From: Gemmatimonadales bacterium
GTDB taxonomy: Bacteria; Gemmatimonadota; Gemmatimonadetes; Gemmatimonadales; GWC2-71-9
NCBI GenBank assembly: GCA_033764135.1
Contig: JANRJE010000006.1
Coordinates: 54,675-118,674 of the forward strand
Length of the DNA stretch: 64,000 nucleotides
Direction: 5' to 3'
This document shows positions 9,481 to 55,092 of this stretch, piece after piece. The notes beneath the pieces are model-generated. The model was given only the letters and a program-made list of their open reading frames with translations, ran no database searches and was not told the origin of the DNA. Numbering within the stretch: position 1 is the first letter of the stretch; every line of letters begins with the position of its first letter. A program made the translations under genes and the position numbers.

Positions 9481-9527
9481 GCTTGGGCCTGCCGCCTTTC
9501 GTGGGTCAGTTAGGATCACAAATCAAA

Positions 9528-27658: not shown

Positions 27659-27834
27659 GATGGTGGCCCCTTGTTGGCCGGGAACTTCCCGTCATCCGCG
27701 GGAGTTTGGTGAGCGTGTGGTCGGTCGTCCCAGGACAAGATGTGTCAGCAACAGGTGGGAACCACCGCAGCACCGGCAGTAGCGGCCGAGCCGTCGCGAG
27801 CGATTCGCGATTGCCCGACCGGTTCATTACTCAA

Positions 27835-30603: not shown

Positions 30604-30685
30604 TGGCCGGAAGCGGCAACGATGACGATATTTCAAATTGCGGCCTGAATGGTCGCCTGATGCAGCAACTCAAAGGAGCGGCACG

Positions 30686-31608
<923 letters not shown>

Positions 31609-31609
<1 letters not shown>

Positions 31610-33066: not shown

Positions 33067-33781
33067 CAGCTCCGGAACCCCGGCCGCCGAGTCGGTACTG
33101 GTGGTCGATATCGGTGGCACCCGGCTCAAGATGCTGGTGACCGGCGAGACCGAACGCCGAGTGGTGGAATCCGGCCCCGAGATGACCGCTACCCAGGCGG
33201 TGCAGGCGATTCGCGACCTCGCCGAGGGGTGGCACTACGACTCGATGGTGATCGGCTATCCCGGACCGGTGGCCGACAACATACCGACCGGCAACCCCCG
33301 CAATCTCGGCCCGGGGTGGCAGGGATTCGACTTTGCGGCCGCCTTTCCCTGTCCGGTTACCGTGGTCAACGATGCCTTGCTTCAGGCCATCGGCAGCTAC
33401 GACGGCGGCCGGATGCTCTTCATGGGGCTCGGCACCGGTCTCGGCACGGCGCTGGTGATCGACGATCTGGCGCATCCGCTCGAACTGGCCCACCTCCCCT
33501 ACCGCAAGGGACGCACCTTCGAGGAATACCTCGGCGTTGAGGGACTCGAAAGAATGGGCGAGGAAAAGTGGCGCCGCCGGGTGGACGACGTGGTGCAGCG
33601 ATTCCGCGCCGCTCTGCTGGTGGATTATGTCGTGATTGGGGGGGGGAACGTCAAGAAGCTCGAAGAGCTCCCCGAGGGCGCCCGGCGAGGCGGCAACGAT
33701 CGGGCCTTCCTGGGCGGCTTCCGCCTGGCTGCCCCCGGCGGGATTCATCTCTGTTCGTCGCGCGACACCGGCTGCGCGTAA
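33059..33781 (+). CDS. ROK-family sugar kinase (glucokinase/polyphosphate glucokinase-like)
   Basis: '[12 protein letters not shown]' ATPase motif and '[11 protein letters not shown]'. Overlaps the zwf end by 8 nt. Confidence 0.7.
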
Positions 33782-33788
33782 CCCGCTG

Positions 33789-34535
33789 TCAGCCGTTGGT
33801 CGCGCCGCCGGCCGCAGCTGCATCGAGAAACCACACCACGCTCCCCGTTGGTCGCACCCGACCGGCGGGGAGTTCGTGTTTTGGCGACGGCGAGGTCAGC
33901 GCACTCCTTACCGTTGCACGCTTCCCTGCCCCGGTCACCAGAAAGAATACAGTCCGGGCCAACGCAATCACTGGCAGAGTGAGGGTGATCCGCTCGGACG
34001 GATCGTATCCGGCCGGTGCCGTGACCGGCACCACCCAGCGGGTCGCTTCATCGAGCGCGCCCGACCCCGCGAAGAGCGACGCTGTATGGCCATCGCTGCC
34101 CATCCCCAGCAGCACCAAATCAAAGGTGGCCTCGGCGCTCCCGAACTGCTGACGCAGGCGCGCCTCATACGCCTCGGCCGCGGCAGCGATCGGGCGGCGC
34201 TCTCCCTCCATCCGGTCGACTGCCGTGCTGGCAATGCCGAGTGGCTCGAGCAACTCGCGATGGGCGATCAGAAAGTTGCTGTGCGGCGAGTCGGGGGCGA
34301 CGCACCGTTCGTCGCCGAAAAAAAAATGGACCCGGTCCCAGGGCGCTGCGGTCGCTCCCAGGGCTGCGAGTCGCTGATACAACAGCGCCGGCGTGGTGCC
34401 ACCAGACAGCGCGATGGTGGCGTGACCTCGCTCCGCCACCGCGTCACGGATGGTCGCCAGCACCGCGTCGGCCGCTATCTGTGCGACTGCCTCGGGATTC
34501 TCCGCGACGCGCACTGCCGGTGCCGCACCTCTCAT
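33789..34535 (-). CDS. pgl: 6-phosphogluconolactonase
   Basis: 'IALSGGTTP', 'FFFGDERCVAPDSPHSNF' and 'DLVLLGMGSDGHTASLF'. Confidence 0.85.
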   Translation of the reverse strand: MRGAAPAVRVAENPEAVAQIAADAVLATIRDAVAERGHATIALSGGTTPALLYQRLAALGATAAPWDRVHFFFGDERCVAPDSPHSNFLIAHRELLEPLGIASTAVDRMEGERRPIAAAAEAYEARLRQQFGSAEATFDLVLLGMGSDGHTASLFAGSGALDEATRWVVPVTAPAGYDPSERITLTLPVIALARTVFFLVTGAGKRATVRSALTSPSPKHELPAGRVRPTGSVVWFLDAAAAGGATNG

Positions 34536-34678
34536 GGCCAAGTTGTCCGCGTCGCGGTGCTCAGAATCTGACCAACCTGCATGCTCCACCTCATCGTCGT
34601 CGAACTCCCCGATTCCTTCACGACTCCAGTGGAGTGTACCATCCAGGACCGCGCCTGAACAGTCCGGGCATCAATGTG

Positions 34679-36342
<1,664 letters not shown>

Positions 36343-36432
36343 TGCGGAGAGCTCCGGTCAGAGTGAGTGGTCGGGACACCGCCAGCGCCATCGGGTCAGG
36401 CGTTCACTTTCCCGAGGCGTGGCGCACGACTA

Positions 36433-36463
36433 ACCTTAGTCCTGTACCTTGGTACGGAGTCAA
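36433..36463 (-). promoter_or_regulatory. mer promoter/operator (PmerT-type): -35 TTGACT, 19-bp spacer containing the MerR dyad, -10 TAAGGT
   Basis: The minus strand reads TTGACTccgtaccaaggtacaggacTAAGGT. The Tn21 merOP, recalled from memory, is TTGACTccgtacatgagtacggaagTAAGGT. Confidence 0.75.
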
Positions 36464-36466
36464 GAG

Positions 36467-36889
36467 ATGAGTTCAGCATCACCGGACGGCCTCACCATCG
36501 GGGCATTGGCCTCGACTGCCGGGGTGGGGGTCGAGACGGTCCGCTTTTATCAGCGGCGCGGCTTGTTGCGCCAACCTGACCGGGCTTGGGGGCGGGTTCG
36601 GCGGTACAGCGGGGCCGACGCGGCGCGGATCCGCTTCATCAAGTCGGCGCAGCGGATGGGGTTCAGTCTGGTCGAGGTGGCGGGACTGCTGGAGCTGGAC
36701 AATGGCCGGCATTGTGATGAGGCGCGGGTGGCTGCCGAGCGGAAGCTGTCGTTGGTGCGGGCCAAGCTGGCCGATCTGGAGCGGGTCGAGGCCGCCCTGG
36801 TCACCCTGGTGGAAGCCTGCGACGCCGCGTCGGGCGAGGTCCGCTGTCCTTTGATCGATGCCTTGCAGCACGACGACGTAGTCCAATGA
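36467..36889 (+). CDS. merR: Hg(II)-responsive transcriptional regulator MerR
   Basis: 'LTIGALASTAGVGVETVRFYQRRGLL' HTH. Three metal-binding Cys are in canonical positions ('GRHCDEA', 'EACDAASGEVRCPLI'). Confidence 0.9.
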   Translation: MSSASPDGLTIGALASTAGVGVETVRFYQRRGLLRQPDRAWGRVRRYSGADAARIRFIKSAQRMGFSLVEVAGLLELDNGRHCDEARVAAERKLSLVRAKLADLERVEAALVTLVEACDAASGEVRCPLIDALQHDDVVQ

Positions 36890-36928
36890 GTACCGCATCT
36901 GACACCAATCATGCCGAGGAGGCCTACG

Positions 36929-37450
36929 ATGTCCGCCAGTGAAACCGAGCCGTGGTTGCGCGGACCGATTGAGGGGATTCCCGCTCTGCTCCTTCCGGCC
37001 GCGCACGCCTTCCAGATGGCGTGGGAGGATGTCGAGCGGGCGGTGATCGGGCTCACCCACAAACAGGTATGGCACCGCGTCGAGGGTATCCCACCGCTCG
37101 GCTTCCACTTGGCGCACCTCTCCGGCAGCACCGACCGGTTGCTGAGTTATGCGCGGGGCGAGGCGCTCACCCCGGCGCAGCGCGAGGTGCTGCTCAGCGA
37201 GCGCACGTTGATGGACACTCGACCGGCGTTGAGCGTGATGCTTGAGCGGTGGCGGTCGACGGTTCAAGTGGCCCAGGTACAGCTCGCCGCGACTGATGAG
37301 GCGACGCTGTTGGAGCCGCGTCTGGTTGGTCGGCGCGAGCTGCCATCGACGGTTTTGGGGTTGATCTTCCACGCGGCCGAACACGCAGCCCGGCACACGG
37401 GCCAGGTGGTGACGACGGCGGCGGTGGTGAGGGGGGTGGGGGGGAGGTAG
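36929..37450 (+). CDS. DinB-family (DinB/YfiT-like four-helix-bundle) protein
   Basis: 'WHRVEGIPPLGFHLAHLSGSTDRLL...HAAEHAARHTGQVV' His triad pattern. Confidence 0.7.
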   Translation: MSASETEPWLRGPIEGIPALLLPAAHAFQMAWEDVERAVIGLTHKQVWHRVEGIPPLGFHLAHLSGSTDRLLSYARGEALTPAQREVLLSERTLMDTRPALSVMLERWRSTVQVAQVQLAATDEATLLEPRLVGRRELPSTVLGLIFHAAEHAARHTGQVVTTAAVVRGVGGR

Positions 37451-37489
37451 GGGTGGGGGGGTAGAGTCGTGGGGATGGTTCGGGGGGGG
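37431..37489 (+). repeat. G-run tract (G6, G7, G4, G7, G4, G8 within about 60 nt), G-quadruplex-prone
   Basis: ggggggtgggggggaggtaggggtgggggggtagagtcgtggggatggttcgggggggg. It overlaps the DinB stop codon and sits at the GC-content drop. Confidence 0.8.
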
Positions 37490-37603
37490 TCCGGGTTTGC
37501 CGTGCTCCGGGATTAGGTTGCGGGTGGATGGTTTTGGTGCAGTATAATTGAAACGAAAAGTAGTTAGGTAGCGAGCACCGAAGCCTGAAAGGACCCGAGC
37601 GAG

Positions 37604-38476
37604 ATGCAAATTTTGGACGAGACAGTAAAGACCGCCGTCACAGACCGTCTTCAAAAGGTCGAGGAACACTTCGAAGGAGATGTGGCGTTTTTCTATGGGT
37701 CGATCGATATCTCAGTCATGCGCGTCTTTCGAGACTTCGTTGAACGAATGGCGGCTTCCAAGTCCCCGGATCGAAACAGACTCATCTTCTTTCTCAACAC
37801 CCCTGGTGGTAGCGCTGAGATCGCCGAGAAGATGGTCGAAATCGTGCGGCATCACTACGCCGAGATATACTTCGTCATCCCGGATGTCGCGTTCTCTGCT
37901 GGCACGATCCTTTGCATGGCTGGGGACCGGATCTACATGGACTATTCCTCGGCTTTGGGGCCGATCGACCCTCAGGTCTGGAACGGGAAGGAGTGGGTTC
38001 CGGCACTCGGCTACCTTGACAAAGTAGAAGGACTGCTGAAGAAGGCTTCCGACGGGACCCTCACGAATGCAGAGTTTCTGATCCTTCAGAATCAGGATCT
38101 CGCTCTGCTCGCGCGCTATGAGCAGGCACGCGATCTAACGGTTACGCTGCTGAAGAAATGGCTGGTAGAATTCAAGTTCAGAAACTGGGAGACGCACCGG
38201 AGCGATCCTGTGAAGATGGGGCACACTGTGACCGATGACGAGAAGCAGGAGCGCGCGGAACAGATCGCACGCATGCTTGGGGACAACAAGCTATGGCACT
38301 CGCACGGCAGGATGATCGGTCCTAGAACGCTGACCCAAATTCTCCGACTGGAGATCAACGACTACTCTACCGATCAGGCGCTACGGCCGTTGATTCGGTC
38401 CTACAACGATCTCTTAACCGATTACATCGCGCGCGGCGGTTTCAACTTATTCATGCATAATCGCGACTTTTTCTGA
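37604..38476 (+). CDS. Clp-fold serine protease of the SDH ('serine dehydrogenase proteinase', SppA/ClpP-like) family
   Basis: 'FFLNTPGGSAEIAEKMV', 'VIPDVAFSAGTILCMAGD' (nucleophile Ser) and 'LGPIDPQV'. Lower-GC codon usage. Confidence 0.7.
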   Translation: MQILDETVKTAVTDRLQKVEEHFEGDVAFFYGSIDISVMRVFRDFVERMAASKSPDRNRLIFFLNTPGGSAEIAEKMVEIVRHHYAEIYFVIPDVAFSAGTILCMAGDRIYMDYSSALGPIDPQVWNGKEWVPALGYLDKVEGLLKKASDGTLTNAEFLILQNQDLALLARYEQARDLTVTLLKKWLVEFKFRNWETHRSDPVKMGHTVTDDEKQERAEQIARMLGDNKLWHSHGRMIGPRTLTQILRLEINDYSTDQALRPLIRSYNDLLTDYIARGGFNLFMHNRDFF

Positions 38477-38488
38477 GAAGGAGGAGTG

Positions 38489-38698
38489 ATGCCAGTTGTT
38501 GAGGATCTGAAGAAAGCGTTCGGCACGTTTCCTGCGGTTACGCCAGATCCAGCAGAGTTGGCGCGCCTGCAGCAGTTTTTCGCCGCGATGAAGACGGCAG
38601 GCATCGCGAAGACGCGCGAGTACGATCTTCCCCAGCCGGATACCATCGGGCGCGCTGCGGTGAACCTGCCCCTCCGCGGCCACCTAACTCGCCGATGA
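38489..38698 (+). CDS. Small hypothetical protein (69 aa) coupled to the protease gene
   Basis: Strong SD GAAGGAGGAG, with the ATG 12 nt after the protease stop. No recognisable domain. Confidence 0.5.
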   Translation: MPVVEDLKKAFGTFPAVTPDPAELARLQQFFAAMKTAGIAKTREYDLPQPDTIGRAAVNLPLRGHLTRR

Positions 38699-39080
38699 TG
38701 CTGGCGGTATCCTTTCACGGCCGCAGCTCATCGGCGCGCCGTTGGGTGGCGATAGACCGGGAGAGCCTATATGGTCCAGATAAACGCAGAGTGGACGTTG
38801 AGGAGTGCAAAGTTTTTGAGTCCGCCTTGTTGGTCCGGCCAGGGCGGTGGACTTATCCAAACGCCAACCCATTCGTACAACCCAGCGAGCAATCAACTTC
38901 GCAACCGGAGGACGGGGGTCGTGGCCGTAGTGGTTGTGGCTCCCACCACCATGAATGCCACTTCCCTCCAAACCGGAGCAGACGTCGATGCCCTGGTTGC
39001 GGCGGTAAATGCTACCGGTCTAAGTATTTGACGAGCAATGGCATCGATTTGGTTGCTCGGAGCTGATCAAAGGAGATTCT

Positions 39081-39269
39081 ATGACTGTGTCAACTGGTTC
39101 GTGCGCACCTACTGGAATACCCCGCAAGAAGCATGGGGAGTCGTTCTCGGACTATTGGCGTCGGCTGACTGACGATGAAATCGCGGGTATTATTCGCGTA
39201 TCGAGATTCATCAACATCACGCCACAGTCACTGTTCAAGGACTTTGCGAGGTTTGTAGACGAAACATAA
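39081..39269 (+). CDS. Small hypothetical protein (62 aa)
   Basis: AAAGGAG RBS 6 nt upstream of the ATG. No recognisable domain. Confidence 0.35.
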   Translation: MTVSTGSCAPTGIPRKKHGESFSDYWRRLTDDEIAGIIRVSRFINITPQSLFKDFARFVDET

Positions 39270-39742
39270 GAACCACTTCCATTGGCGGAAGAATGACAGT
39301 CACGCGGCGCATTGACTAGAGCCATTTCAGCTACCGGGTAGAGTAGATACAAAGCACATTAGACCGCGTGCATAGGTCACACTTGCTCGGGTTTCCCCGT
39401 CAGTTCCGAAGAACGTACTCGCATCATCGAATCTGGCCATCATGACGTTACGGAGGTAGTTCGACCAGATGCGGTCCTCCGCTTCGTAGAGTCCCACGTC
39501 GTAGCCCTCGAGCTGGGTGGCAGACGTCCCTCACAATTGTAGGAGCAGTCCAGATCGGCTCGTTGTTCTCACCACCCAATGAGGGGCGATACATGAATCG
39601 TTCACATTGTACCAGGAGACTCCCACAACGGCATGGCCACCCACGGTTCGTAAACCAGGGTAGTCGTGTCCCCCATTTCCCCCGTATATTCTGTTACCTG
39701 TATACCCGGCTTATACCGAAAGTCCTCTGACAGGGGGTTGCC

Positions 39743-40447
39743 ATGCGGGGCATCTGCTCTCTTATACTTGCGTGTGCTGGCGGACTCACCGCGTGCGCCG
39801 CGTCAGTGCAATATGTTGTCTCTGTCAGTACGCTGACTGACCCTGACTCGTCACCGCGCGAAACCTTCGTGATCCTGCCCAGCGCCCAGGCGTCCGACAC
39901 CAACGATTTACAGTTCCGAGAGGTCCGCAACTATCTAAAGCGAGCGCTCATCTCCAGGGGGCTAGTACCTACCGATGGCCGAGCGACGCCTCAACTTGCC
40001 ATATTTGTCGCCTATGGAATCGGTGAGCCAAGAACGCAAACGTATTCCTATTCGTTCCCAGTCTGGGGCAGGCTTCCTGGATCAACCACAATTGTTACTG
40101 CGACGACAACGGGGAATTCAGGTTCTTCGACAACCACCGGCACCGCGACGACTCAGCCCACCTCTGGCATCGTTGGTAACGCATCTGGTACGTCTTCGGT
40201 TACCACCTACACTCGTTACATGCTGATCCAGGCCGTGGACATCGGTTTGTACCAGCAGACACAGGTCTTTCGAGAGGCATGGCGCACCAATATCATCAGT
40301 ACGGGAACTTCCGGCGACCTTCGGGTTATTCTGCCAGTTCTTGTCGCGGCCGCTGTGCCGTACCTCGGGACCCAGACTACTCATGCCATCGAGGTTAAGT
40401 TGAAGGATTCCGATTCACGGTTAACCGCGATTCGCGGACACAAGTAA
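39743..40447 (+). CDS. Lipoprotein, DUF4136-like, with Thr/Ser/Gly-rich insert
   Basis: Lipobox 'LILACAGGLTAC'. 'ETFVILPS...' and 'YTRYMLIQAVD...EAWR' resemble the DUF4136 layout. Confidence 0.55.
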   Translation: MRGICSLILACAGGLTACAASVQYVVSVSTLTDPDSSPRETFVILPSAQASDTNDLQFREVRNYLKRALISRGLVPTDGRATPQLAIFVAYGIGEPRTQTYSYSFPVWGRLPGSTTIVTATTTGNSGSSTTTGTATTQPTSGIVGNASGTSSVTTYTRYMLIQAVDIGLYQQTQVFREAWRTNIISTGTSGDLRVILPVLVAAAVPYLGTQTTHAIEVKLKDSDSRLTAIRGHK

Positions 40448-40480
40448 TGGTAAGCGCGCTAATGCCCATCAATATGTTTG

Positions 40481-41182
40481 ATGTTGGCCAACGGCACCGG
40501 ACAATCATGCATGACCCAACGTGATCCTCGTGACGAAGGTCGCCCAGGCGAGAAAGAGTGGCAGGAGTTCCGCACTAGCTTTGCCGGGGCTTTGCTCCAC
40601 TCTTGGCTCATCCGCGACCTGGAGGAGATGCGGCCAGACTATCACTCTGAACTTAAGCAGCGGATTGGGGATGCCATTTGCACGATCTACGTCATGCGAG
40701 AGGAAGATCCTGACGCAATTGAAGGACCAATCCAGGGACCCGAGGGGAGTGGCGCCGACTTCTGGGACCTGCCGAGCTTGGAACTCCTCGAGAACCAACT
40801 TTTCCCACGTGGAACGAGCACCGAAGACATTTTGTTCGCTGCAAGAGGGCTCATAGTTGTTGGACTTCACGCCGCCCTAGAGTCCTATTTCTTGTCACGG
40901 TTTCAAGCGTCTGGTCGCAAGCCATTGTATCGTTTTGTTGAGGATGTCATCACTCGCAGTGGCGTCACGTTTCCCGCCGCACTCTTCCGCGATCTTGTTG
41001 ACTGCGATGAGACCCGTCACCTTTTCGCTCATTCGCGGGGCGTAGTCACGAATCGGTATATCCACAACGTCGCCGGCACTCAATTATCCGAGGGACAGTT
41101 TCGGCCCCTGCATACGACTGATCTTCATCGATTCGCTTCGGCTATCTGGCAAACTGCCGTCATGCTTCGCCATGTAGCTTGA
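40481..41182 (+). CDS. Hypothetical protein with HEPN-like Rx4H motif
   Basis: 'DCDETRHLFAHSRGVV' (R-H-L-F-A-H encoded at 41015-41032) in a predicted helical C-terminal half. Start is 40481 or 40511. Confidence 0.45.
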   Translation: MLANGTGQSCMTQRDPRDEGRPGEKEWQEFRTSFAGALLHSWLIRDLEEMRPDYHSELKQRIGDAICTIYVMREEDPDAIEGPIQGPEGSGADFWDLPSLELLENQLFPRGTSTEDILFAARGLIVVGLHAALESYFLSRFQASGRKPLYRFVEDVITRSGVTFPAALFRDLVDCDETRHLFAHSRGVVTNRYIHNVAGTQLSEGQFRPLHTTDLHRFASAIWQTAVMLRHVA

Positions 41183-41323
41183 GGCTCGGTCTATGTGGTT
41201 GAAAGGAGGTGTGGAGCCGTCGGCCGCGAAGCTCCGTGCAGCAGGCGGCGTCTTTAACACGACTGCGAATGATACGCAACGCGTTAGGTGGCACTCTGGT
41301 CCTTCCATTTGGACGGAGTCTTG

Positions 41324-41983
41324 ATGACTCAGTCGCGTTTCTACTTCGTGCCTACGTCCGTCGCCATAGAATGCCCGGCGTGCGGTGAGGTCGTCGCTGC
41401 TACCGTGGTCAGCCACTACGCCTATTTCGCAGAAGAACCAGGAATCCCGATCAGGTACCTATTCGCGCGGTGCCCCTCCTGCAACGACCCGATGGTAGCG
41501 CGTCAGGACAACGATGGCAATTGGGAAGACGATCGTGACTTCAGCCAGCCAGTTCGAGTCCTACCTGCCCCATTTCAAGCTGGTCACGCAGTTCCCTCAT
41601 CCGTTGCGTCCGCATATGAAGAGGCAGCAAGGTGTCTCACGGTTCGCGCATACGCAGCCACCGCATTGTTGTGCAGGAAGGCTCTCGAGGCTCTAGTCGC
41701 CGAGCATGAGATCACTAGCCGCAACCTTGCTGACGCTCTCAAAATCATGCGCGACCAGGGACTTATCGACCCACGAATCTTCGAGTGGGGAGATGCGCTT
41801 CGGCTCACAGGCAATCAGGCCGCTCACGACGTGGCTGACAATATTTCACGCGAAGACGCTCGTGATGTTCTCGACTTTACGAGCGCATTGATTGCCTATA
41901 TGTATACTTTTCGCGATCGCTTTGAGACTTTCAAAGCACGACGCACCGGACACAAGCGCGCTGCCACCGAACCAGACCCATGA
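41324..41983 (+). CDS. Zinc-ribbon + DUF4145 (HEPN-related) domain protein
   Basis: N-terminal 'CPACG...CPSCN'. C-terminal 'WGDALRLTGNQAAHD...DARDVLDFTSALIAYMY' is typical of DUF4145. Confidence 0.65.
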   Translation: MTQSRFYFVPTSVAIECPACGEVVAATVVSHYAYFAEEPGIPIRYLFARCPSCNDPMVARQDNDGNWEDDRDFSQPVRVLPAPFQAGHAVPSSVASAYEEAARCLTVRAYAATALLCRKALEALVAEHEITSRNLADALKIMRDQGLIDPRIFEWGDALRLTGNQAAHDVADNISREDARDVLDFTSALIAYMYTFRDRFETFKARRTGHKRAATEPDP

Positions 41984-42144
41984 AATCGGGCGACGGCGCA
42001 GTGGTCCTTGTGGCGTCTCGTCCCGGGCAACACCTTACGACCGGTCTTCTCAACGATGCCAACGGAATGGCTCCAGAGCACCGGCGGCTGCCGACCGACG
42101 CCACTTCGCTGGTGAGCTGCTGGCTGTCAGACCCGGGAGGGTGA
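41980..42144 (+). CDS. Possible 54-aa ORF (below the ORF-track cutoff)
   Basis: Its ATG overlaps the DUF4145 gene stop (ATGA at 41980-41983). I count about 70% G/C at third codon positions by hand. Confidence 0.3.
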   Translation: MKSGDGAVVLVASRPGQHLTTGLLNDANGMAPEHRRLPTDATSLVSCWLSDPGG

Positions 42145-42380
42145 CGGTGGCCATTGGAGGCGACGTGGTACTGGGCGCGGCTGCAAGGCCCGTTGGGCAC
42201 AACATGGATTCCGGCCGGGACGGCCCATCCCTACCGGGTCAAGTTGATCTGCCCGACCCGGGCCAGCATCGACGCGCGCTGTCATGGACGGTCCCTGGAT
42301 TGATTATCCAGGCCGCTGGACTCGCACAAGGGCAGATGGTGACCTCGGGGGTGCCCAACTCCACCACGCTCCGGGATTAG
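42141..42380 (+). CDS. Possible 79-aa ORF
   Basis: Its GTG overlaps the previous stop (GTGA at 41141+1000, i.e. 42141-42144). The C-terminus 'WTVPGLIIQAAGLAQGQMV' is faintly AbrB/SpoVT-like. Confidence 0.3.
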   Translation: MTVAIGGDVVLGAAARPVGHNMDSGRDGPSLPGQVDLPDPGQHRRALSWTVPGLIIQAAGLAQGQMVTSGVPNSTTLRD

Positions 42381-42463
42381 CTTGCATCGCGGATGGTTAG
42401 GGCGCGGTGTACTTGAAAGTATGGAGTTAGGAAGCCAGACCGAATTACAACGGAGGCCGACCC

Positions 42464-42973
42464 GTGGAAAGTGGTATGCTGCTCATCATTATTGGGGCTA
42501 GCCTACTTGTCGCAGCCCTAGTTGGGTCCTTTGTTGCAGGTGCCAAAGGTCGCAGCGGTACCGAGGGATTCTTCCTCGGCTTGATCCTAGGCCCATTCGG
42601 CCTCCTCATCGAAGCCCTTCTCCCCACCCTTCGATCACAAGGTTCGCCCTCACTAACGCCAAGTTGCTCAACGTTCGAAGACGAGCCCTTCGACCCCGGG
42701 CAGCTATCGAAGAAGTGCCCGGATTGCGCTGAGACCATCAAGCTTGAAGCCCGCGTCTGCCGCTTCTGTCAAGCGCGGTTCGATGACCAGGCCGTCGCGC
42801 TTGCGGTCGAGGCTGCCAGAGGTACGCACGGAGCCACTACAGCCCGGTCACCAACTGCTGGTCCGATTGTAGCCAAATGCGCAGTTTGCGGCGTTCCGTT
42901 GACAGAAGAGGAGGTACACTCACTGATAGGCAAGTCCTATTGCGACCGCCACTTCACGGAGAAGATCAATTAG
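42464..42973 (+). CDS. Membrane protein (2 TM) with two cytoplasmic zinc-ribbon motifs
   Basis: TM 'LLIIIGASLLVAALVGSFVAG' and 'FFLGLILGPFGLLIEALL'. 'CPDCAETI...CRFCQARF' and 'CAVCGVPL...YCDRHF'. GTG start behind ACGGAGG. Confidence 0.6.
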   Translation: MESGMLLIIIGASLLVAALVGSFVAGAKGRSGTEGFFLGLILGPFGLLIEALLPTLRSQGSPSLTPSCSTFEDEPFDPGQLSKKCPDCAETIKLEARVCRFCQARFDDQAVALAVEAARGTHGATTARSPTAGPIVAKCAVCGVPLTEEEVHSLIGKSYCDRHFTEKIN

Positions 42974-43068
42974 GGCTTCCTAACCAGCGCTTGGACGCTG
43001 CCGGGGCCGCCAGGGATCTTCGATCGGCTTGGCGTCGCAGGTCAAGCGCAGGTCGTTAGGCCGCCAAT

Positions 43069-43545
43069 TCATTCGGGATAGACCTGAGTGCCGTGTTCAG
43101 TTACGAACTTGACCGGGATTTTGGGGTTATTGATGTCGCCATCGACCTCCCACTTCGCCTCCCACTTCGCGAAATAGTGCTCCAGCGCACCAGGGGTCAC
43201 TCTATAGATCGCTTCGATTTCGATCCCTGCGTAGACCGCGAACACCCACTCCACCTTGCGGTATTTTTCAATGATCCCGGGGTTCAGATGGTGGTGTGTC
43301 GAGAAGCTCTTGGTCAGCAACCGATTTACACTCTTCAACTCAAATTCGTTCCCGGCCGCATCAACGGCATCGTTGCCCTCTCGACCAGGAATGATCACGA
43401 GCCCTGTGATCAAGAGGACCTGAAGCAGTTTGCCGCCGTTATCTTGAAAGATGTCTGCGATCCCATGCTTCGTGGCGAGATCTTGGTACAGGCGCACGGC
43501 GGGAAGCAGCTTCCACAGCTCTGGCAGATCTTCGTGTGGCTTCAC
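43069..43545 (-). CDS. Type II restriction endonuclease, PvuII family (predicted CAGCTG specificity)
   Basis: '[19 protein letters not shown]', '[10 protein letters not shown]', 'ELKS', 'FSTHHH' and 'INNPKIPVK' are collinear with my recollection of R.PvuII. Confidence 0.9.
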
Positions 43546-43772
43546 AGTCCCAGACCGCCGAGAAGTTCAGTCACTCGGATTCCCAGGGCGCCGGCTAGCC
43601 GTTCTATGTTGTCGATCGATATATTTCGTTCACCACGCTCGACTGAGCCCACATAGGTACGGTGGAGTCCCGCTCTCGCTGCCAACTCCTCCTGTGAAAT
43701 CCGCGCAGCTTGCCTCGTAGCTCGAAGATTTTGAGCCAAGACCAGCCGGGCATTCTGCGTTTTTTTCGTCAT
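43542..43772 (-). CDS. Controller (C) protein, XRE-type HTH
   Basis: '[39 protein letters not shown]'. ATGA overlap with the R gene, as in pvuIIC-pvuIIR. Confidence 0.85.
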
Positions 43773-43791
43773 GGTTTAAATTTGGTGGGGC

Positions 43792-43809
43792 GATTACTAT
43801 ACGTCTACA
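43792..43809 (-). promoter_or_regulatory. Candidate C-box operator upstream of the C gene
   Basis: The minus strand reads TGTAGACGTATAGTAATC, which resembles the GACT-N3-AGTC-type C-boxes as I remember them. Imperfect match. Confidence 0.35.
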
Positions 43810-43829
43810 GCTTTTAAGTAGCATTTGTT

Positions 43830-44861
43830 ATGGGAGGAACCATGCTGAGCGCTGAACCGGCTTACTCGACAAGACTAGGGAAATGCATCTGCGGCGATTC
43901 CCTCGACCTCATCCCTCAGCTGACTGACGAGTCGGTAGATTTGGCACTGACCAGCCCCCCATTCGCTCTGCAGCGAAAAAAGGAGTACGGAAACCCGGAT
44001 CAAGGCGACTACGTCGAATGGCTCGCCACTTTTGCACTGGCCCTGCTTCCGAAACTCAAGGAAACTGGAAGCTTCGTAATCGACATTGGTGGTGCCTATC
44101 AAAAGGGCATTCCCTCTCGCAGCCTCTACCCCTTCAAGACTCTGATCAAGTTCTGCGACGAGCTTGGGTATCATCTTGCCGAGGACTTCTACTGGTTCAA
44201 TCCCTCAAAGCTCCCAAGCCCGATCGAATGGGTAAACAAGCGCAAGCTTCGCGCGAAGGATTCGGTCAATACAGTCTGGTGGCTGAGTAAGACTCCTTGG
44301 CCAAAAGCTGATATTTCGACTGTACTGACAGAATACAGTCCGCGCATGAAGCAGCTTTTGCAGGACCCGACTGGGTTTTATTCGCCAAAGCTTCGACCCT
44401 CCGGTCACGACATCGGGGCTGCCTTCGCGCAGAACAACGGCGGCGCAATTCCGTCGAATTTGTTGAGCATTCCCAACTCCGAATCGAACGGCGCGTATTT
44501 GGGAACGTGCAAAGCCCTAGGGTTGGTAGGTCATCCTGCGAGGTTTCCTGGGAAGCTACCAGAATTTTTCATTCGTATGCTGACTTCCCCGGGAGATCTT
44601 GTCCTCGATTTCTTTTCCGGATCGAACACGACGGGCATGGTTGCCGAGGCCGAAGGCCGCCGTTGGCTCAGCTTCGAACTTGATCGCGAATACACTGCAA
44701 CTTCTGTTTTTCGCTTTCTCGGCGACAAGCCTGTCTCAGAGATCGCGAAGGAAATGCACGCTCGCGTTCTGGCCGGCGAACATCTTGACCTCAGCGCATT
44801 TCGACCACAGTCAGAATTGTTTGAAGGCGAAGCGACTGGCCCACGCGCAGTGAATGCATAA
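43830..44861 (+). CDS. N4-cytosine DNA methyltransferase, M.PvuII family
   Basis: 'LALTSPPFALQRKKEYGN' (SPPF motif), 'EDFYWFNPSKLPSPIEWVNKRKLR' and 'HPARFPGKLPEFFIRMLT'. Divergent from C-R. Confidence 0.9.
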   Translation: MGGTMLSAEPAYSTRLGKCICGDSLDLIPQLTDESVDLALTSPPFALQRKKEYGNPDQGDYVEWLATFALALLPKLKETGSFVIDIGGAYQKGIPSRSLYPFKTLIKFCDELGYHLAEDFYWFNPSKLPSPIEWVNKRKLRAKDSVNTVWWLSKTPWPKADISTVLTEYSPRMKQLLQDPTGFYSPKLRPSGHDIGAAFAQNNGGAIPSNLLSIPNSESNGAYLGTCKALGLVGHPARFPGKLPEFFIRMLTSPGDLVLDFFSGSNTTGMVAEAEGRRWLSFELDREYTATSVFRFLGDKPVSEIAKEMHARVLAGEHLDLSAFRPQSELFEGEATGPRAVNA

Positions 44862-45064
44862 AGGAAGTCCAAGCGTCACCACATAGCCCTTCACTGCCTG
44901 ATTCTGCAATTGCGCAGTTGCGGCATCACATGCGTTTGCTGCTGACGGCTGCGCTACCCACGAGGCGCCTGCGGCGCGAGCGCGCTCGCGGCTGATTGCC
45001 ACCTCGCGATGTCTTTCTCGAACCGTCAGTCCGCAACCCTCGCTGGAGAAAACAGGTACCTGAT

Positions 45065-45382
45065 ATGACGCCGAAGATTTCTGGAGGGCTGGTTCACGAC
45101 TTGCCCGGCGACTTGGCCAAGGCCATGACGGACGATGGCCTGATCGGTACTTGGGAAGCCTTGTCGGCGATCGGCCGCAACGAGTATATCTGTTGGGTTG
45201 AAGACGCCAAACAGGAGAAGACCAGAGCAAAACGGATCGCGCGAGCTGTCGAGGAGCTTCTGGAAGGGAAAAAGCGACCTTGCTGCTGGGTCGGGTGCAT
45301 ACACCGCACCGACAAGAAGCCCAGCAAGTGGCAACAGGATGTCCTGATAGACAAGAAACCGAAAAAGGCCGCGACGCAATGA
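45065..45382 (+). CDS. YdeI/OmpD-associated family protein
   Basis: 'TWEALSAIGRNEYICWVEDAKQEKTRAKRIARAVEEL'. Confidence 0.6.
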   Translation: MTPKISGGLVHDLPGDLAKAMTDDGLIGTWEALSAIGRNEYICWVEDAKQEKTRAKRIARAVEELLEGKKRPCCWVGCIHRTDKKPSKWQQDVLIDKKPKKAATQ

Positions 45383-45455
45383 GATGGCACCAACGCATGA
45401 CAATCGGCTCCGCACGGAGCCAGGCGTTGGGACGACCTGCCACAGGAGGATTGCC

Positions 45456-45932
45456 ATGAGTGTGATGAAGAAACTTCGTGCGGCCCTGGTCGTCGGCGCA
45501 ACCCGGGCGGTCGCGTGGGGTGTGCTGGCCATGGTCGGCCTCTACGCCATGGTTCTCGCCACCCGCTCCCCGGCAGAGCTGGCCGACTTGGCAACTCGAA
45601 TGAGTATCGCGCACAGTATCCCCGCCACCGCATTCGTCCTCGGTGCGTTGCTTGGCTTCATCGCAGGGCTGCTGTTCTCGCTTCTTCTCGCGGTCGGCGA
45701 AGCGCAGGCCGCCTCGCGGCGATTCACCATCTCGCGTGCATTGATGTGGGGCACGGTCGCCGGCGTGGGCATGGGAGCGACAATCTCGCTCGTCACCGGC
45801 TGGGCGGTCTCCAGTGAACTTGCGGCTGTGTTCCTTCTCTCGGGCGGGACGGCAGCTGCAGCCACCTTGGTCACAGCGCGGCGCGCACCGCGCCTTGATT
45901 CCTCGCTGCACAGAGACCGACTGGCGCCCTGA
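45456..45932 (+). CDS. Hypothetical 4-TM membrane protein
   Basis: CAGGAGGA RBS. Hydrophobic segments 'AWGVLAMVGLYAMVL', 'FVLGALLGFIAGLLFSLLLAV' and others. Confidence 0.5.
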   Translation: MSVMKKLRAALVVGATRAVAWGVLAMVGLYAMVLATRSPAELADLATRMSIAHSIPATAFVLGALLGFIAGLLFSLLLAVGEAQAASRRFTISRALMWGTVAGVGMGATISLVTGWAVSSELAAVFLLSGGTAAAATLVTARRAPRLDSSLHRDRLAP

Positions 45933-46307
45933 CATGGCGCCATCTCTCCCAACGGGGCCGATCTGATCCGATAAACCTTCCTCGCGCTGGACACGCACGG
46001 ATCGATCCGGCGAAGATCCAGCAGTATCTGCTGTCGTCGTCGCATCCTATCGGCCGTTCGAAAGCAAGGTTCTTTCGTCGGCTTGGCTTCGCCGCTTCAC
46101 GCTGGCAGGAACTCCGCGACGCATTACTCCTTCACGCGCGACACGGTGCAGCGACCACCGCCCAAGCCGGTCCGTTTGGACAAAAGTACTTGGTCCGGTA
46201 TGCTTCAGGGATCGGGCGACCGCGCCGCAGTCGTGAGCGTCTGGATTGTGCGGACCGGCACTGCCGATCCGGTATTCGTCACCGCTTATCCCGAGGACGG
46301 CCCATGA
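45933..46307 (+). pseudogene. DUF6883-like gene relic (no start codon, internal frameshift near 46195-46210)
   Basis: Frame A reads '...IDPAKIQQYLLSSSHPIGRSKARFFRRLGF...PFGQKYLVRY'. Frame B continues 'LQGSGDRAAVVSVWIVRTGTADPVFVTAYPEDGP*'. Confidence 0.5.
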
Positions 46308-46543
46308 CCTTCCGTGAACTCGACACCGTCGTACTTACCCGCGACCGGCCCGAAGCTGGCCTCAAGGCCGGCGACTTGGGAGCGGTCGTGCATGTCCACG
46401 CGCCTGCCGATGTTGAAGTCGAGTTCGTCGCTGCATCAGGACGGACGCAGGCCCTCATCACGTTGCACGCCGACGAGCTCCGCGCCGTGGACGACAATGA
46501 CCTGCTTGCGGTCCGTGCCGTTCCTGCGACAGGGGCAGCCTGA
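46304..46543 (+). CDS. DUF4926-domain protein (usual partner of DUF6883)
   Basis: 'FRELDTVVLTRDRPEAGLKAGDLGAVVHVH...VEVEF'. ATGA overlap with the relic upstream. Confidence 0.6.
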   Translation: MTFRELDTVVLTRDRPEAGLKAGDLGAVVHVHAPADVEVEFVAASGRTQALITLHADELRAVDDNDLLAVRAVPATGAA

Positions 46544-46730
46544 CGAAGTGGTGGAACGGCCGAACCCGGATCCGTCGGTAATGCGCGATTGGCGAGCACG
46601 ATTCATTGGCGCCTTCGCTGCTTGACACTCCCGCGTCACCCCGTGAACCTCCCGATATGGCCGCACCTCCAGACTGTGAGCTCTGGTTCTTGAAGAGATA
46701 TTGTTCACGTACGGCTTCGCGAATCGCATT

Positions 46731-47240
46731 ATGCCCACGCCTTGCTGCCAGGTAACTCCTCATGATCCGGTCCGCCCGGCGACTCATGCTGATCACGCCG
46801 AGATCGTGCGGGTGGTGAACCTCGCGTATCGGGTGGAGGACTTCTTTGTGCGGGGAGACCGGCTCACGCCGACGTTGTTGACGACGTATGCATCGCGCCC
46901 GGCCGGTGCCTTTCTGGTTGTCGACGGTGAGACGCCTGGCACGCTTGCCGCATCGGTCTACTTCGAACAGCGCGCCTATCGCGGTTGGTTCGGGATGCTG
47001 GCGGTGGATCCGGCCGCACAGGGTCGCGGCCTTGCGCACGCGCTCATCGTGGCCGTCGAAGAGCGGTGTCGTCGGTCCGGATTGGAGTCGCTCGAGCTCG
47101 AAATGGTTGACCTGCGCACGGAATTGCCGGCGTTCTATGAGCGGTTCGGTTTTGAGATCACCGGGCGGCGACCGTTCCCGGATCCGGAAAAGCTCAAGCG
47201 TCCTGCGGAGATGATCGTGATGGGAAAGCATGTGAGGTAG
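46731..47240 (+). CDS. GNAT-family N-acetyltransferase
   Basis: '[32 protein letters not shown]' (motif A) and 'FYERFGF'. Confidence 0.8.
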
Positions 47241-47262
47241 GGGGCGCGTTGCTGCAGCGCGC

Positions 47263-47560
47263 GTGGTCAACCGGAAACGGTTAACGGGCGAGCCAGTTTA
47301 CCCAGGGTCAGGTACTGGCGGCGTTGCTGTTTCTCTGTTGTCACGGCTTGTTGCGCGGTCAAGCGCCGACGCGAGTTGTCACACACTGCGGCATTTGTTC
47401 GCCACGCACCTGCTGGGTGCTGGCCATGACATCCGGACAGCGCAATAGCTGTGTCGCCCATGATCCTCGCTTCGCAATTGATGTGCAGATCTATGCCCCC
47501 GGTGTGTTGCATCCTCCCGGGCGGCAGACACCAACCGCGTTGCCGATCCAACTAGGCGGG
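47263..47560 (+). pseudogene. Tyrosine recombinase (integron-integrase/XerD-like) 3' relic
   Basis: '[24 protein letters not shown]', then after a frameshift 'VAHDPRFAIDVQIYAPGVL', a decayed 'LGH...T..IYTHVL' box II. The N-terminal two thirds are absent. Confidence 0.65.
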
Positions 47561-48584: not shown

Positions 48585-48955
48585 CGGTTGGCCAAAGCGG
48601 CGGCGCAGCGAACCGACTGCCGGTTTGAGGCGGGAGCAGGTTGGAAAACGTCAATTGGGGTGCACAGACAGGAAGGGGGCTCGCTCTGGTGCGAAGGTCG
48701 ATTGCGGAAGCACGCAGGTTCGGCCGGTGAACCCCTCGCAGCGCTGAAGGGCCGCAAGCTCTTCGTGGTGACCGAACTCGACGCCAATGCCGCCGGGCCC
48801 AGACTTCCCCGGATTCGCCGGCAGTTCGAGGCCGTAGGTAACCCGAAGGAGTTGGTGGTGCTCGAAGGCTACCCCAGGGAAACTTGGCGCAGCTCGATTC
48901 AAGCGATTGAACGTCTCCCTTTCCCTCCCGTTGCACCCGAGTACTTGCCCGGCAC

Positions 48956-48979
48956 GATGATATCACCTATGATATCATC
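48956..48979. promoter_or_regulatory. Perfect 10-bp inverted repeat abutting the PIN start codon (putative TA operator)
   Basis: GATGATATCAcctaTGATATCATC, immediately followed by ATG at 48980. Confidence 0.5.
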
Positions 48980-49408
48980 ATGATCCGGCGGGTCGTGCTC
49001 GACACGAATGTGCTCGTGGCCGCCCTGCGGTCGCAGCAGGGCGCCTCCCACGCCGTGCTGCGCCGAGTGGGGTTGGGGCAGTTCGAGTTCTGCCTGTCCG
49101 TTGCCCTGATGTTGGAGTACGAAGGGGTCTTGAAACGCCCGAGTAGCGGGATCGCGCTGTCGTCGGCCGCCATGGATGACATCCTGGACTACCTCGCGAA
49201 GGTCGGGCGTGCCTAGGAGATTTATTTCCTCTGGCGCCCCACCCTGCCGGATCCTGCCGACGATCATGTGATGGAGTTGGCTGTCGCGGGCGGCTGTGAC
49301 ACGATCATCACGTTCCACCGACGCCATTTTCAGGGTGCCGAGCGATTCGGCCTCGGAATCGCGTCCCCGGCGGAGTTTCTCCGGGATCTACCGAGTGAGG
49401 AATCATGA
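48980..49408 (+). pseudogene. PIN-domain toxin with in-frame TAG at 49214-49216
   Basis: 'VVLDTNVLVAALRS' (N-terminal acidic D) ... TAG ... 'FLWRPTLPDPADDHVMELAVAGGCDTIITFHRRHF', all in one frame. Confidence 0.7.
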
Positions 49409-50199: not shown

Positions 50200-50292
50200 C
50201 TGGCGGCCGGAGCGGGGAAGATGGCTTATGTGTGACACAGGCGGACCTTCCAGTCCCGGGATTCGACACTCCATCTGTCTGAGGATTCCAGA

Positions 50293-50958
50293 GTGATCGC
50301 CATCCACCCACGAACACTGTTCGCCCTTCTTCTCGCCGCGACAACACCGGGCGTCGCGCAATCGTCCGCCGGGCACCGATTGGGCCAACGGGCCGCGCTG
50401 CCTGATTCGGTGCGCGAGGTTCTTGGAGGAGGGCGCTTCCAGGTCACCATCGAACGGCAGGTGACCGATTCTTTCCAGCGCCAGCTGATCGAGCTGGCCG
50501 AGCGGATCCTTCCGGACACGGTCGCAATAAACGTCGCTGCTCTGAAGGAATCGTTGCCGCGCGTCAAGGAAAGACTCGCGGCAGCAGAACGGATGGTCGG
50601 TGAGCGCTGGTGGTGGGACGAGGCTGATGGGATCCTCACACCCTATGCGCTCACGGGGGCGGCAGTGAGGTACTTTCTTGAACGCATCCATGAGCGGGCA
50701 GCAGGTGACAACACGTTGGCACGAGATCGGTGGGCGACGCATCGGGGCGAGCTGACGTATGCCGCCGCAGTCGATCGTATAGCACCGGGAGACGCTGATG
50801 GAGCAACATTCGTTGTGCGGATGCGACTGACGTGGAGCTATTCCTGTGGCATGCTCTGCGGGATGTCCTTCCACGCCACCCGGGCCGTATTCTTTGATGC
50901 CGACGGCGCGCTGATCCGGATCGAGGGTGACGGGAAGCCGCTGGTCATCATGTCCTGA
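50293..50958 (+). CDS. Hypothetical secreted protein
   Basis: Signal 'LFALLLAATTPGVAQS'. GTG start. No recognisable domain. Confidence 0.4.
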   Translation: MIAIHPRTLFALLLAATTPGVAQSSAGHRLGQRAALPDSVREVLGGGRFQVTIERQVTDSFQRQLIELAERILPDTVAINVAALKESLPRVKERLAAAERMVGERWWWDEADGILTPYALTGAAVRYFLERIHERAAGDNTLARDRWATHRGELTYAAAVDRIAPGDADGATFVVRMRLTWSYSCGMLCGMSFHATRAVFFDADGALIRIEGDGKPLVIMS

Positions 50959-51242
50959 TCCCAGCGGATAGCATGGCGTTGGTATCATGCAGGGGAATGC
51001 CTCCCTATCGGAAACCTATCCAGAACCAACGGCCTCCCCCGCCCCTCTCCTCGCCACATCGTGAAATCGAAATCCTGCTCGTCGCTGAAGCGACGGTCGT
51101 TTCCCGACGAGGCGAGCTGTGCGGCGGACCTGCTCCACCACACGGCCGCGATCCCGGCGCCGTTGGAGGCGCGAGGAACAACGCCTGTATTGACTGGGGA
51201 GCCGTTCTCCCGATCTCACCGGCAGGTCGCATTGAGCCCCTG

Positions 51243-51262
51243 TTGACAATAATAATTGTCAA
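51243..51262. promoter_or_regulatory. AT-rich palindrome upstream of the ArsR-family gene (putative operator)
   Basis: TTGACAATaataATTGTCAA lies 16 nt upstream of the ATG at 51278, in otherwise GC-rich DNA. Confidence 0.5.
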
Positions 51263-51277
51263 AGGTATTGTTTCCCC

Positions 51278-52695: not shown

Positions 52696-52743
52696 ATACC
52701 TGAATCCCCATGAATACAGTCGGAATCAGCAATTGCATCATGA

Positions 52744-55092
<2,349 letters not shown>

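Follow-up and report, generated by a model that had tools for sequence, protein, structure and literature searches.

The stretch of DNA studied here (the window, 64 kb) is part of a contig of a Gemmatimonadales metagenome-assembled genome (MAG). It contains dinB, a core gene of the DinB_2 family (36,911-37,450, + strand; Pfam DinB_2 E=4e-9), and, directly 3' of this gene, a block of DNA with a low G+C content (GC). The block carries genes for a serine protease and a small partner, a DUF4145 protein, a Zn-ribbon membrane protein, a complete type II restriction-modification (R-M) system, and an OmdA/YdeI-family protein. To the left of dinB are merA (34,679-36,097, - strand), a merT/F-like gene, and merR (36,449-36,889), and pentose-phosphate genes also lie in this left flank. 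Logan contigs from DRR729084 and DRR729085 match the window at 100% identity. We compared the window with a sister genome (GCA_034377365.1), a Gemmatimonadales MAG that has the region on a 120-kb contig and encodes a DinB protein 96% identical to that of the window. The sister was found by querying a large protein collection with DinB, and an independent Logan assembly covers the same region (the two loci are L042 and L043). A search of GTDB species representatives with DinB for an empty site gave a best match of 62% identity and no synteny.

The composition of the block sets it apart from the rest of the window. Two-boundary likelihood segmentation placed it at 37,510-45,480, with a GC of 0.561 as against 0.648 outside. 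In 1-kb windows GC is 0.54-0.59 for ~37.5-45.4 kb, and outside it is 0.647 +/- 0.018 with a minimum of 0.606. GC at third codon positions (GC3) is 0.80-0.84 in merA, merR, and dinB, 0.53-0.69 within the block, and 0.70-0.90 from 45.46 kb rightward. Tetranucleotide content, measured strand-symmetrically as the distance from the window background, exceeds the outside mean by 6-11 standard deviations (sd) at 37.5-45.5 kb. An earlier reading of this DNA, which used no database searches (the sequence-only reading), had described a lower-GC accessory island of ~10 kb bounded by a G-run tract on the left and a recombinase relic ending at 47,560 on the right. Its hand counts of GC in single 60-nt lines (51.7% at 38041, 56.7% at 40021, and 66.7% at 35041) are exact, and the compositional deviation that it proposed is borne out by the sliding GC, GC3, and tetranucleotide scans, all of which show it for 37.5-45.5 kb. 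The left start of the island also holds. The right end does not, because the likelihood boundary is at 45,480 and the comparative one at 45,416-45,432. Thus, the block measures ~7.9 kb rather than ~10 kb and ends ~2.1 kb earlier than claimed. The DNA from 45.5 to 47.6 kb has a host-like GC of 0.62-0.65 and a tetranucleotide deviation of 1.6-2.5 sd.

The sister has an empty site at this position. Its DNA is collinear with the window over 26,935-37,439 at 96.7% identity and then directly over 45,416-45,933 at 92.9%, with ~63 nt in the sister standing where the window has 7,976 nt (~37,540-45,415). More distant relatives (L044-L048) also lack the block. The first gene that is again common to the window and the island-free relative encodes a 158-aa membrane protein (45,456-45,932, + strand; blastn 92.9% to L042 10575-11092, where it lies directly after dinB), and this gene is therefore the right flank. 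The empty site in a relative that is 96.7% identical, together with the foreign composition, supports the conclusion that the low-GC block is horizontally acquired, strain-specific accessory DNA, as the sequence-only reading had proposed.

The left junction is not at the G-run. This tract (37431-37489, + strand) exists as described and is 73% G. No other cluster of the G-quadruplex type is present on the + strand of the window, and the tract corresponds to a 48-nt G-rich insertion relative to the sister at and after the dinB stop codon. Past it, native dinB-downstream sequence resumes and continues up to ~37,535 (GCCGTGCTCCGGGATTAGGTTG...GGATGGT in the window, GCCGTGCTGCCGGATTAGGTTG...GGATGGT in the sister). 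The dinB-downstream spacer (37,490-37,562, + strand) is thus native in its 5' half and unlike the sister in its 3' half, and it ends at a core, GTTAGGT (37,563-37,569). Since the native spacer resumes after the G-run, the true left breakpoint lies at ~37,536-37,563, in agreement with the compositional boundary; the composition shift starts ~50-100 nt past the G-run. The native spacer sits on island-side short-read contigs, and the block is therefore tied to dinB independently of the MAG scaffold. The gene order merA-merF-merR-dinB is kept in every relative examined, down to 73% DinB identity, and merR-dinB is conserved in L042-L048. Because of this conservation the plastic zone starts at the 3' end of dinB and excludes the mer unit.

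Several other observations concern this left anchor. The G-run creates an earlier stop codon, so that the C-terminal end of DinB changes from ...VVRGVAPGSAVLPD in the sister to ...VVRGVGGR in the window. In both samples the Illumina-based Logan contigs are interrupted at the G-run by a poly-C artefact; we considered this break as a sign of strain variability and rejected it as a poly-C sequencing artefact. Identity to the sister over 34,100-37,440 (mer-dinB) is ~95%, with a minimum of 92.7% within merA, as compared with ~97.6% further left. Either a tract of recombination or a higher rate of change in the mer genes could account for this dip.

Within the block we found recombination sites of the integron type. 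attC sites were called by strict consensus and by structure-aware scans as R'' (RYYYAAC) and R' (GTTRRRY) boxes 50-150 nt apart in an imperfect hairpin with extrahelical bases. The sites at 38,682-38,747 and 42,978-43,061 (both + strand) were the only ones with the full consensus in three different scans. Both form long hairpins in which R'' and R' are paired and single bases are extrahelical. The boxes of the first are ACCTAAC and GTTGGGT (hairpin dG -45.5) and those of the second are TCCTAAC and GTTAGGC (hairpin dG -45.6). In shuffled controls relaxed attC scans yielded ~2-6 chance matches per 64 kb, and folding energy used as an attC detector gave no discrimination in 65%-GC DNA. Of the core motif GTTAGG the + strand has five copies in the island, against an expectation of 1.0, and a single one in the remaining 56 kb. 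Four of the five island copies are at unit boundaries (37,563; 41,283; 42,426; 43,055). On the - strand the window has only two copies, both of them R'' boxes of the canonical attC sites. The lone + strand copy outside the island (9509-9515, GTTAGGA) has AT-rich flanks, tcacaaatcaaactatacc.

The first of these sites closes a two-gene unit that directly follows the dinB spacer. Cassette 1 (37,563-38,747, + strand) starts at GTTAGGT and contains a gene for an SDH-type ClpP-fold serine protease (37,604-38,476, + strand; Pfam SDH_protease E=2.7e-14; phrog_11747 E=4e-56; no PADLOC match), a 70-aa partner open reading frame (ORF; 38,486-38,698, + strand), and the attC site. A metagenome scan with the protease gave 23 loci (L049-L071). 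The 70-aa ORF follows the protease gene in at least 14 of them, and no other island gene co-occurs. In these loci the partner ORF is ~60-70 aa long and begins 13-15 nt downstream, locus GC ranges from 0.39 to 0.65, and the unit is mostly isolated, resembling the single isolated cassettes known as SALINs. The ends of the protease unit could be read in four loci (L050, L052-L054) as (G/C)|TTAGGTGGCCAGAC on the 5' side and GGCCACCTAAC...GCGTTAGGC on the 3' side, and in two of these (L053 and L054) the unit has a canonical attC. Because the unit holds 54-58% GC inside flanks of 61-71% GC, the low GC of the block is a property of the cassette pool.

The second canonical site belongs to the Zn-ribbon cassette (42,426-43,061, + strand), which consists of a gene for a membrane protein (42,464-42,973) and the attC. 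A homologue of the Zn-ribbon protein that is 89% identical is encoded on a metagenome contig (L072; ENA ERZ27315235 k141_30965). At the DNA level the match is 91.6%; its limits coincide precisely with G|TTAGGA (42,426) on the left and with CGTTAGGC (43,055-43,061) on the right, and TCCTAAC lies ~75 nt ahead of the second core of the unit. These homology limits at the cores, with TCCTAAC before the second core, identify the Zn-ribbon unit as an integron cassette with its attC. On L072, positions 1-2497 form a complete small integron comprised of intI and three cassettes, each with a canonical attC, and the Zn-ribbon unit is the second cassette. The L072 intI scores 213 bits with the integron integrase model TIGR02249 over its C-terminal half as against 84 bits with XerC. 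It has the same direction as the cassettes, the first core (GTTAGGC) is 72 nt after the intI stop codon, and the cassettes include an Unstab_antitox pair. As the two units in the window have intact attC sites, an integron integrase acting in trans could still move them.

The block also contains a diverged copy of its own left junction (42,268-42,432, + strand), formed by a decayed dinB 3' end (42,268-42,339) followed by a copy of the spacer. A repeat search gave collinear matches between 37,298-37,553 and 42,157-42,418. The spacer match itself (37,504-37,582 versus 42,368-42,444) has 75% identity over 80 nt in blastn (E=7e-7), and 71 nt at 42,268-42,339 align with the 3' codons of dinB. Local-alignment scores were 27 and 34, with controls drawn from random window segments at 9.6 +/- 1.5 (maximum 16) and 7.7 +/- 1.2, respectively. 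The 18-mer GCTCCGGGATTAGNTTGC is confined to the left spacer and the internal copy. Overall the two are ~72% identical, and this internal repeat (42.27-42.44 kb) is the only junction-like one that we found. It has no G-run and falls where GC rises locally to a host-like 0.64-0.67 (42.0-42.4 kb). The spacer copy bears attC-like boxes, with R'' GCCCAAC at 42,353 and R' GTTAGGA at 42,426-42,432, and the Zn-ribbon cassette starts at the latter.

To the left of the internal copy is the gene for the DUF4145 protein (41,288-41,983, + strand; Pfam E=7e-19; phrog_1305 E=8.5e-30), which matches PADLOC PD-T7-4 with partial coverage (E=3e-11). A GTTAGGT core at 41,283, where the unit begins, is 5 nt ahead of the first possible start codon of the gene, and this unit is probably an integron-type cassette as well. 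Together with the protease pair, the DUF4145 gene is candidate defense or accessory cargo. The units between cassette 1 and this gene (38,748-41,282) have no recognizable attC; their GC is 0.55-0.56 and their GC3 0.58-0.60. Family searches gave no significant match for any of them. They include two small ORFs (38,771-39,031 and 39,081-39,269, both + strand), a lipoprotein gene with a weak DUF4136 match (39,743-40,447, + strand), and orf234 (40,478-41,182, + strand). The last contains an Rx4H motif and is a candidate HEPN gene, HEPN-like genes being among the contents listed by the sequence-only reading, and no paralogy with the DUF4145 gene was detected. PADLOC gave no match for the protease, lipoprotein, orf234, Zn-ribbon, and OmdA proteins.

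To the right of the Zn-ribbon cassette is the R-M system, with all three genes intact and in the canonical layout. An R.PvuII-like type IIP endonuclease (R) is encoded at 43,069-43,545 on the - strand (locus tag SFU57_02325; Pfam Endonuc-PvuII E=3e-60; PDB PvuII E=2e-69 over the full length) and retains the D...ExK motif of PvuII. The gene for the controller (C) protein (43,542-43,772, - strand; PADLOC Control_protein E=5e-26; PDB C.BclI and C.AhdI E~1e-12) overlaps the start of the R gene by 4 nt. Divergent from C-R is the gene for an M.PvuII-type N4-cytosine methyltransferase (M; 43,830-44,861, + strand; PDB 1BOO E=1e-139 over the full length; PADLOC MTase_II E=3e-160). The 57-nt intergenic region between M and C contains GTAGACGTATAGTA. 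By analogy with PvuII the unit should restrict unmodified CAGCTG-type DNA, and M presumably methylates CAGCTG. The C protein would activate transcription of its own gene and of R, and restriction would start only after M protects the genome. Owing to this delayed onset of R, PvuII-type operons can establish themselves after transfer. Avoidance specific to CAGCTG was not apparent in the window, where 15 sites were observed and 25.6 expected. The ratio is the same as for other palindromes and the depletion is therefore not specific to CAGCTG. Six-base palindromes are depleted window-wide, for example CTCGAG (28 versus 51 expected) and GTCGAC (24 versus 43 expected). Tracing a donor via R was unsuccessful, as the next-best homologues are ~74% identical and scattered over many phyla.

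The last gene of the strain-specific block encodes an OmdA/YdeI-family protein (45,065-45,382, + strand; Pfam OmdA E=6.5e-15; GC 0.569). It is followed by a 44-nt hairpin (45,389-45,432) that ends in GTTGGGA. Two Logan contigs of DRR729085 meet between M and OmdA with an overlap of exactly 30 nt (44,965-44,994), next to a perfect 16-bp palindrome, CGCGAGCGCGCTCGCG, and in DRR729084 the contig is continuous through the same positions. The break in DRR729085 may stem from a population variant that branches the assembly graph or from reduced coverage at a hairpin. Searches of other samples for intermediate forms of the island found none. We also found no match in an Rfam scan of 36-49 kb, no enrichment in a scan for promoters and terminators, no phage in a similarity search, and only weak gene-level matches (the R-M, ClpP-like, and OmdA genes) in a plasmid search.

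To the right of the 158-aa gene the window and the sister differ gene by gene. A decayed pair, DUF6883 (frameshifted) and DUF4926 (45,950-46,543, + strand; stitched DUF6883 E=1e-25; DUF4926 E=3e-19), is absent from L042, has host-like GC, and lies outside the low-GC block; it is the decayed toxin-antitoxin (TA) pair of the sequence-only reading. In the sister the DNA corresponding to 45,933-46,701, which includes this pair, is replaced by 4.7 kb with genes for an ECF sigma factor, an anti-sigma factor, a dioxygenase, and YceI and BNR proteins. Next is a GNAT acetyltransferase gene (46,701-47,240, + strand; Pfam Acetyltransf_1 E=2e-12), of which the sister retains only the 5' 160 nt. Most of the contents that had been listed for the island are real (the SDH-type protease with its small partner, DUF4145, a complete R-M system, GNAT, the frameshifted DUF6883 with DUF4926, and broken genes), and defense-type cargo is present in the form of the type II R-M system and the PD-T7-4-like DUF4145 gene.

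Further right are genes for DUF3224, VOC, PIN_3, and HicB proteins. Between VOC and HicB the window has 777 nt more than the sister (48,601-49,378, containing orf107 and PIN_3), and the PIN_3 gene (48,980-49,405) is interrupted by an in-frame TAG at 49,214-49,216. The DNA from 50,208 to 52,757 differs between window and sister, and collinearity is restored at katG (52,757). Relative to the sister the plastic zone therefore extends rightward to 52.8 kb. Relative to the more distant L044 (DinB 73% identical), whose collinearity with the window breaks off at 37,422 and is regained at 57,979, it extends to 58.0 kb. In L044 a homologue of the GDPD gene (window 57,982-59,085) lies ~240 nt after dinB, and the intervening 20.5 kb, including katG, are absent or elsewhere. 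The larger plasticity zone that had been suggested for 34.6-50 kb is accordingly real to the right of the block, and the mer unit, being syntenic in the relatives, falls outside it. The small same-strand genes and single-gene indels led us to consider an integron array across 45.4-58 kb, which was rejected as this DNA has no attC and no GTTAGG cores and the indel breakpoints are not at G|TT.

The recombinase fragment that had been taken as the right boundary of the island (47,263-47,560, + strand) is real. It is the 3' end of a decayed integron-integrase-like tyrosine recombinase of ~75 codons, with box II (HTLRH...DIRT) and then a stop or frameshift. The window copy matches Pfam Phage_integrase (E=1.2e-4) and the NCBIfam integron integrase TIGR02249 (E=3.6e-9). 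The sister also has the relic, at 93.5% DNA identity to window 47,285-47,452, and the sister copy scores 59.8 bits with TIGR02249 versus 47.9 bits with XerC and aligns over 65 aa at 54% identity to IntI of L072. As the relic is separated from the inserted segment by 1.8 kb and is kept in the island-free sister, it is neither the boundary nor the integrase of the island, and it either predates the insertion or is independent of it. Its decay has taken a different course in each genome, by a frameshift in the window and by an in-frame stop codon and loss of the catalytic Tyr in the sister. Through a 423-nt deletion in the sister (window 46,862-47,285; L042 15996-15998) the GNAT gene is joined by its 5' end to the relic.

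We consider it likely that ~37,540-45,430 is a strain-specific, horizontally acquired composite of 7.9 kb, made largely of integron-type cassettes, directly 3' of the core gene dinB. Its parts would be the protease-pair cassette, the Zn-ribbon cassette, probably the DUF4145 unit, a foreign dinB remnant with an attC-like spacer, and a C-controlled PvuII-type R-M operon with OmdA. The units could have been assembled at G|TTRGG cores by an integron integrase, whether that of the now decayed local intI-like gene or another that worked in trans or in a donor lineage, and the first cassette would have joined the GTT core that closes the dinB spacer. From the internal copy of the dinB end and spacer we infer that the right half of the block (Zn-ribbon, R-M, OmdA) once lay behind the dinB of another genome. 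The present block would then be a concatenation of two former occupants of one site. Closely related strains probably exchange the block by homologous recombination in its conserved flanks. The classes that suit it best are a cluster of attC sites without an integron integrase (CALIN-like) or a defense islet.

A number of points weigh against this interpretation. Only two of the attC sites are canonical; the one at 42,353-42,432 is borderline, and those at 41,245-41,292, 42,048-42,198, and 45,389-45,432 are weak. Cassette boundaries could be demonstrated neither for ~2.5 kb of the block (38.7-41.3 kb) nor for the R-M unit. The 27 nt ahead of the left core differ between window and sister, and the left junction is thus no clean G|TT event. 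A DinB protein hidden Markov model fails on the internal dinB remnant (E=23), leaving its identification to the DNA-level alignments. The window has no intact intI, and tblastn with a true IntI matches nothing beyond the relic. Every comparison genome is a MAG or a metagenome contig, and the difference may reflect loss in the sister instead of gain here.

The strongest alternative concerns how the block was delivered. It may have arrived pre-assembled, by homologous or homeologous recombination from a related strain, with no integrase acting at this site and the cassette features inherited from the donor. We regard this as a serious possibility, though with something short of an even chance. 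The left breakpoint is situated inside the conserved spacer, where it follows identical stretches of 13 and 9 nt, rather than at G|TT. Identity dips on both sides of the block (~95% over 34.1-37.4 kb as against ~97.6% further left, and 92.9% on the right), and the block holds a foreign piece of dinB and no intact intI. Set against these points, a donor genome was not found, the next-best cargo matches being 74-92% identical and in unrelated contexts, and the identity dips could be due to locally faster evolution. This alternative concerns only the way in which the block was delivered and leaves room for cassettes as the source of its content. On our reading, the differing 27 nt ahead of the left core, the left breakpoint, and the identity dips favor the import of a pre-assembled array by homologous recombination from a related lineage, in which case the cassettes would have been assembled earlier by an integrase. 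Stepwise action of an integrase in situ and loss in the sister lineage are also possible.

Such a loss, in which both strains would have inherited the block from their common ancestor and the sister would then have shed it by integrase-mediated cassette excision or illegitimate deletion, seems unlikely to us. Integron arrays readily lose blocks of cassettes, the sister keeps the spacer with a GTT core (GTTCGGG) directly before the 158-aa gene, and only two genomes at this distance are available. Opposed to it are the strongly foreign GC, GC3, and tetranucleotide content, which shows little amelioration, and the further relatives (L044-L048) without the block. In addition, the 3' half of the spacer differs between window and sister, and precise excision would leave it unchanged.

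A more speculative proposal, which we hold to be rather improbable, is that the ~110-nt spacer 3' of dinB is itself a conserved site of cassette capture, either attI-like or a fossil attC that is tied to a core gene and not to intI. In three lineages a different first unit abuts the terminal G|TT core of this spacer: in the window it is the protease cassette, behind the foreign internal dinB copy the Zn-ribbon cassette, and in the sister the 158-aa gene. The adjacent 48-nt expansion, uniquely prone to form G-quadruplexes, could then affect recombination or expression at the site.

The island proposed by the sequence-only reading, ~10 kb from 37.4 to 47.6 kb, integrated by its own recombinase, bounded by the G-run and the relic, and now immobilized, is very unlikely and is largely refuted by the empty-site comparison. 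In its favor, a recombinase fragment does exist at 47,263-47,560, the genes between 45.4 and 47.3 kb are of accessory type and partly decayed, the tetranucleotide deviation is mildly raised at 45.5-49 kb (1.4-2.5 sd over the outside mean), and identity to the sister is lower to the right of the block (88-93%). Against it, the relic and the 5' end of the GNAT gene are present in the sister without the low-GC block, and the block ends at 45.4 kb both by composition and by comparison. The att-like direct repeats expected at the junctions were searched for and none are shared by 37.4 and 47.6 kb or by 37.5 and 45.4 kb, and the 64-kb window has no tRNA gene. Moreover, the closest matches of the relic are integron integrases, a group that does not insert islands in this manner. 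An assembly artefact in which dinB was misjoined across the G-run to DNA of a lower-GC organism is scarcely credible: Logan contigs do break at the G-run in both samples, with the poly-C artefact described above, but the island-side contigs open with native spacer nearly identical to that of the sister, the right junction and 5 kb of host-type DNA are on a single 13-kb contig at 100% identity, and the internal dinB copy links the block to this type of locus.

CALINs are attC clusters that lack an integron integrase, and an intI pseudogene is found within 10 kb for ~5% of them (Cury et al. 2016, PMC4889954). Cassettes also occur singly as SALINs and can settle outside att sites (Loot et al., 10.1101/2022.09.11.507474). 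The block resembles both in that its same-strand units end in hairpin-forming attC sites, no intact intI is near, and its cassettes are of unknown or defense type. It lies ~4 kb from an intI pseudogene, and its protease unit is an isolated cassette elsewhere. Unlike a typical CALIN, it has only two or three recognizable sites. The canonical pair is 4.23 kb apart, at the edge of the 4-kb clustering rule of IntegronFinder; with the borderline third site included, the spacings become 3.6 kb and 0.55 kb. Much of the block is devoid of attC sites, cassette 1 adjoins a dinB spacer and not an attI by intI, and the block holds a duplicated, diverged copy of its own junction.

Cassettes are enriched for defense, TA, and R-M functions, and sedentary chromosomal integrons store anti-phage systems (10.1101/2024.07.02.601686). 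The block is similar in having an R-M system and a PD-T7-4-like DUF4145 gene among its cassettes, with TA-like pairs nearby. It differs in being a tiny array with neither a functional integrase nor a Pc/attI platform; an intact intI next to an attI and an array was not found in the window, only the decayed fragment at 47,263-47,560. The host is also different, being a member of the Gemmatimonadales rather than Vibrio or another Proteobacterium, and integrons are already known in Gemmatimonadota (PMC8618304). The R-M operon departs from the streamlined, promoterless cassette, as it is 2.4 kb long and bidirectional and has its own control circuit. It is like the PvuII system of Proteus (pvuIIM, pvuIIC, pvuIIR) in that M is divergent from C-R, C overlaps R, and R matches over its full length. 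The C protein here is of the C.AhdI/C.BclI family. Unlike the Proteus system, this one is chromosomal, in an environmental Gemmatimonadales MAG, and lies between an attC and an OmdA gene, and its CAGCTG specificity is predicted.

In core-gene-flanked variable hotspots and defense islands, a fixed core anchor is followed by cargo that differs between close relatives. The present locus fits this pattern with dinB as the anchor, variable cargo, and mosaic gene-by-gene replacement to the right. It differs from such hotspots in that some of the cargo has integron recombination sites and the spacer of the anchor recurs inside the island.

None of these findings overturns current understanding. They indicate that an island does not necessarily end at a recombinase fragment that happens to lie close to a shift in GC, and that the islet described here is not the product of one integrase-driven insertion. 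They also bring out a widespread two-gene cassette comprised of an SDH-type protease and a small partner, and add a Gemmatimonadales case to the CALIN/SALIN phenomenon. In the little-studied Gemmatimonadota, the locus shows a small accessory or defense islet in which cassettes and an autonomous R-M system are stacked behind a core gene, near a dead integron integrase.

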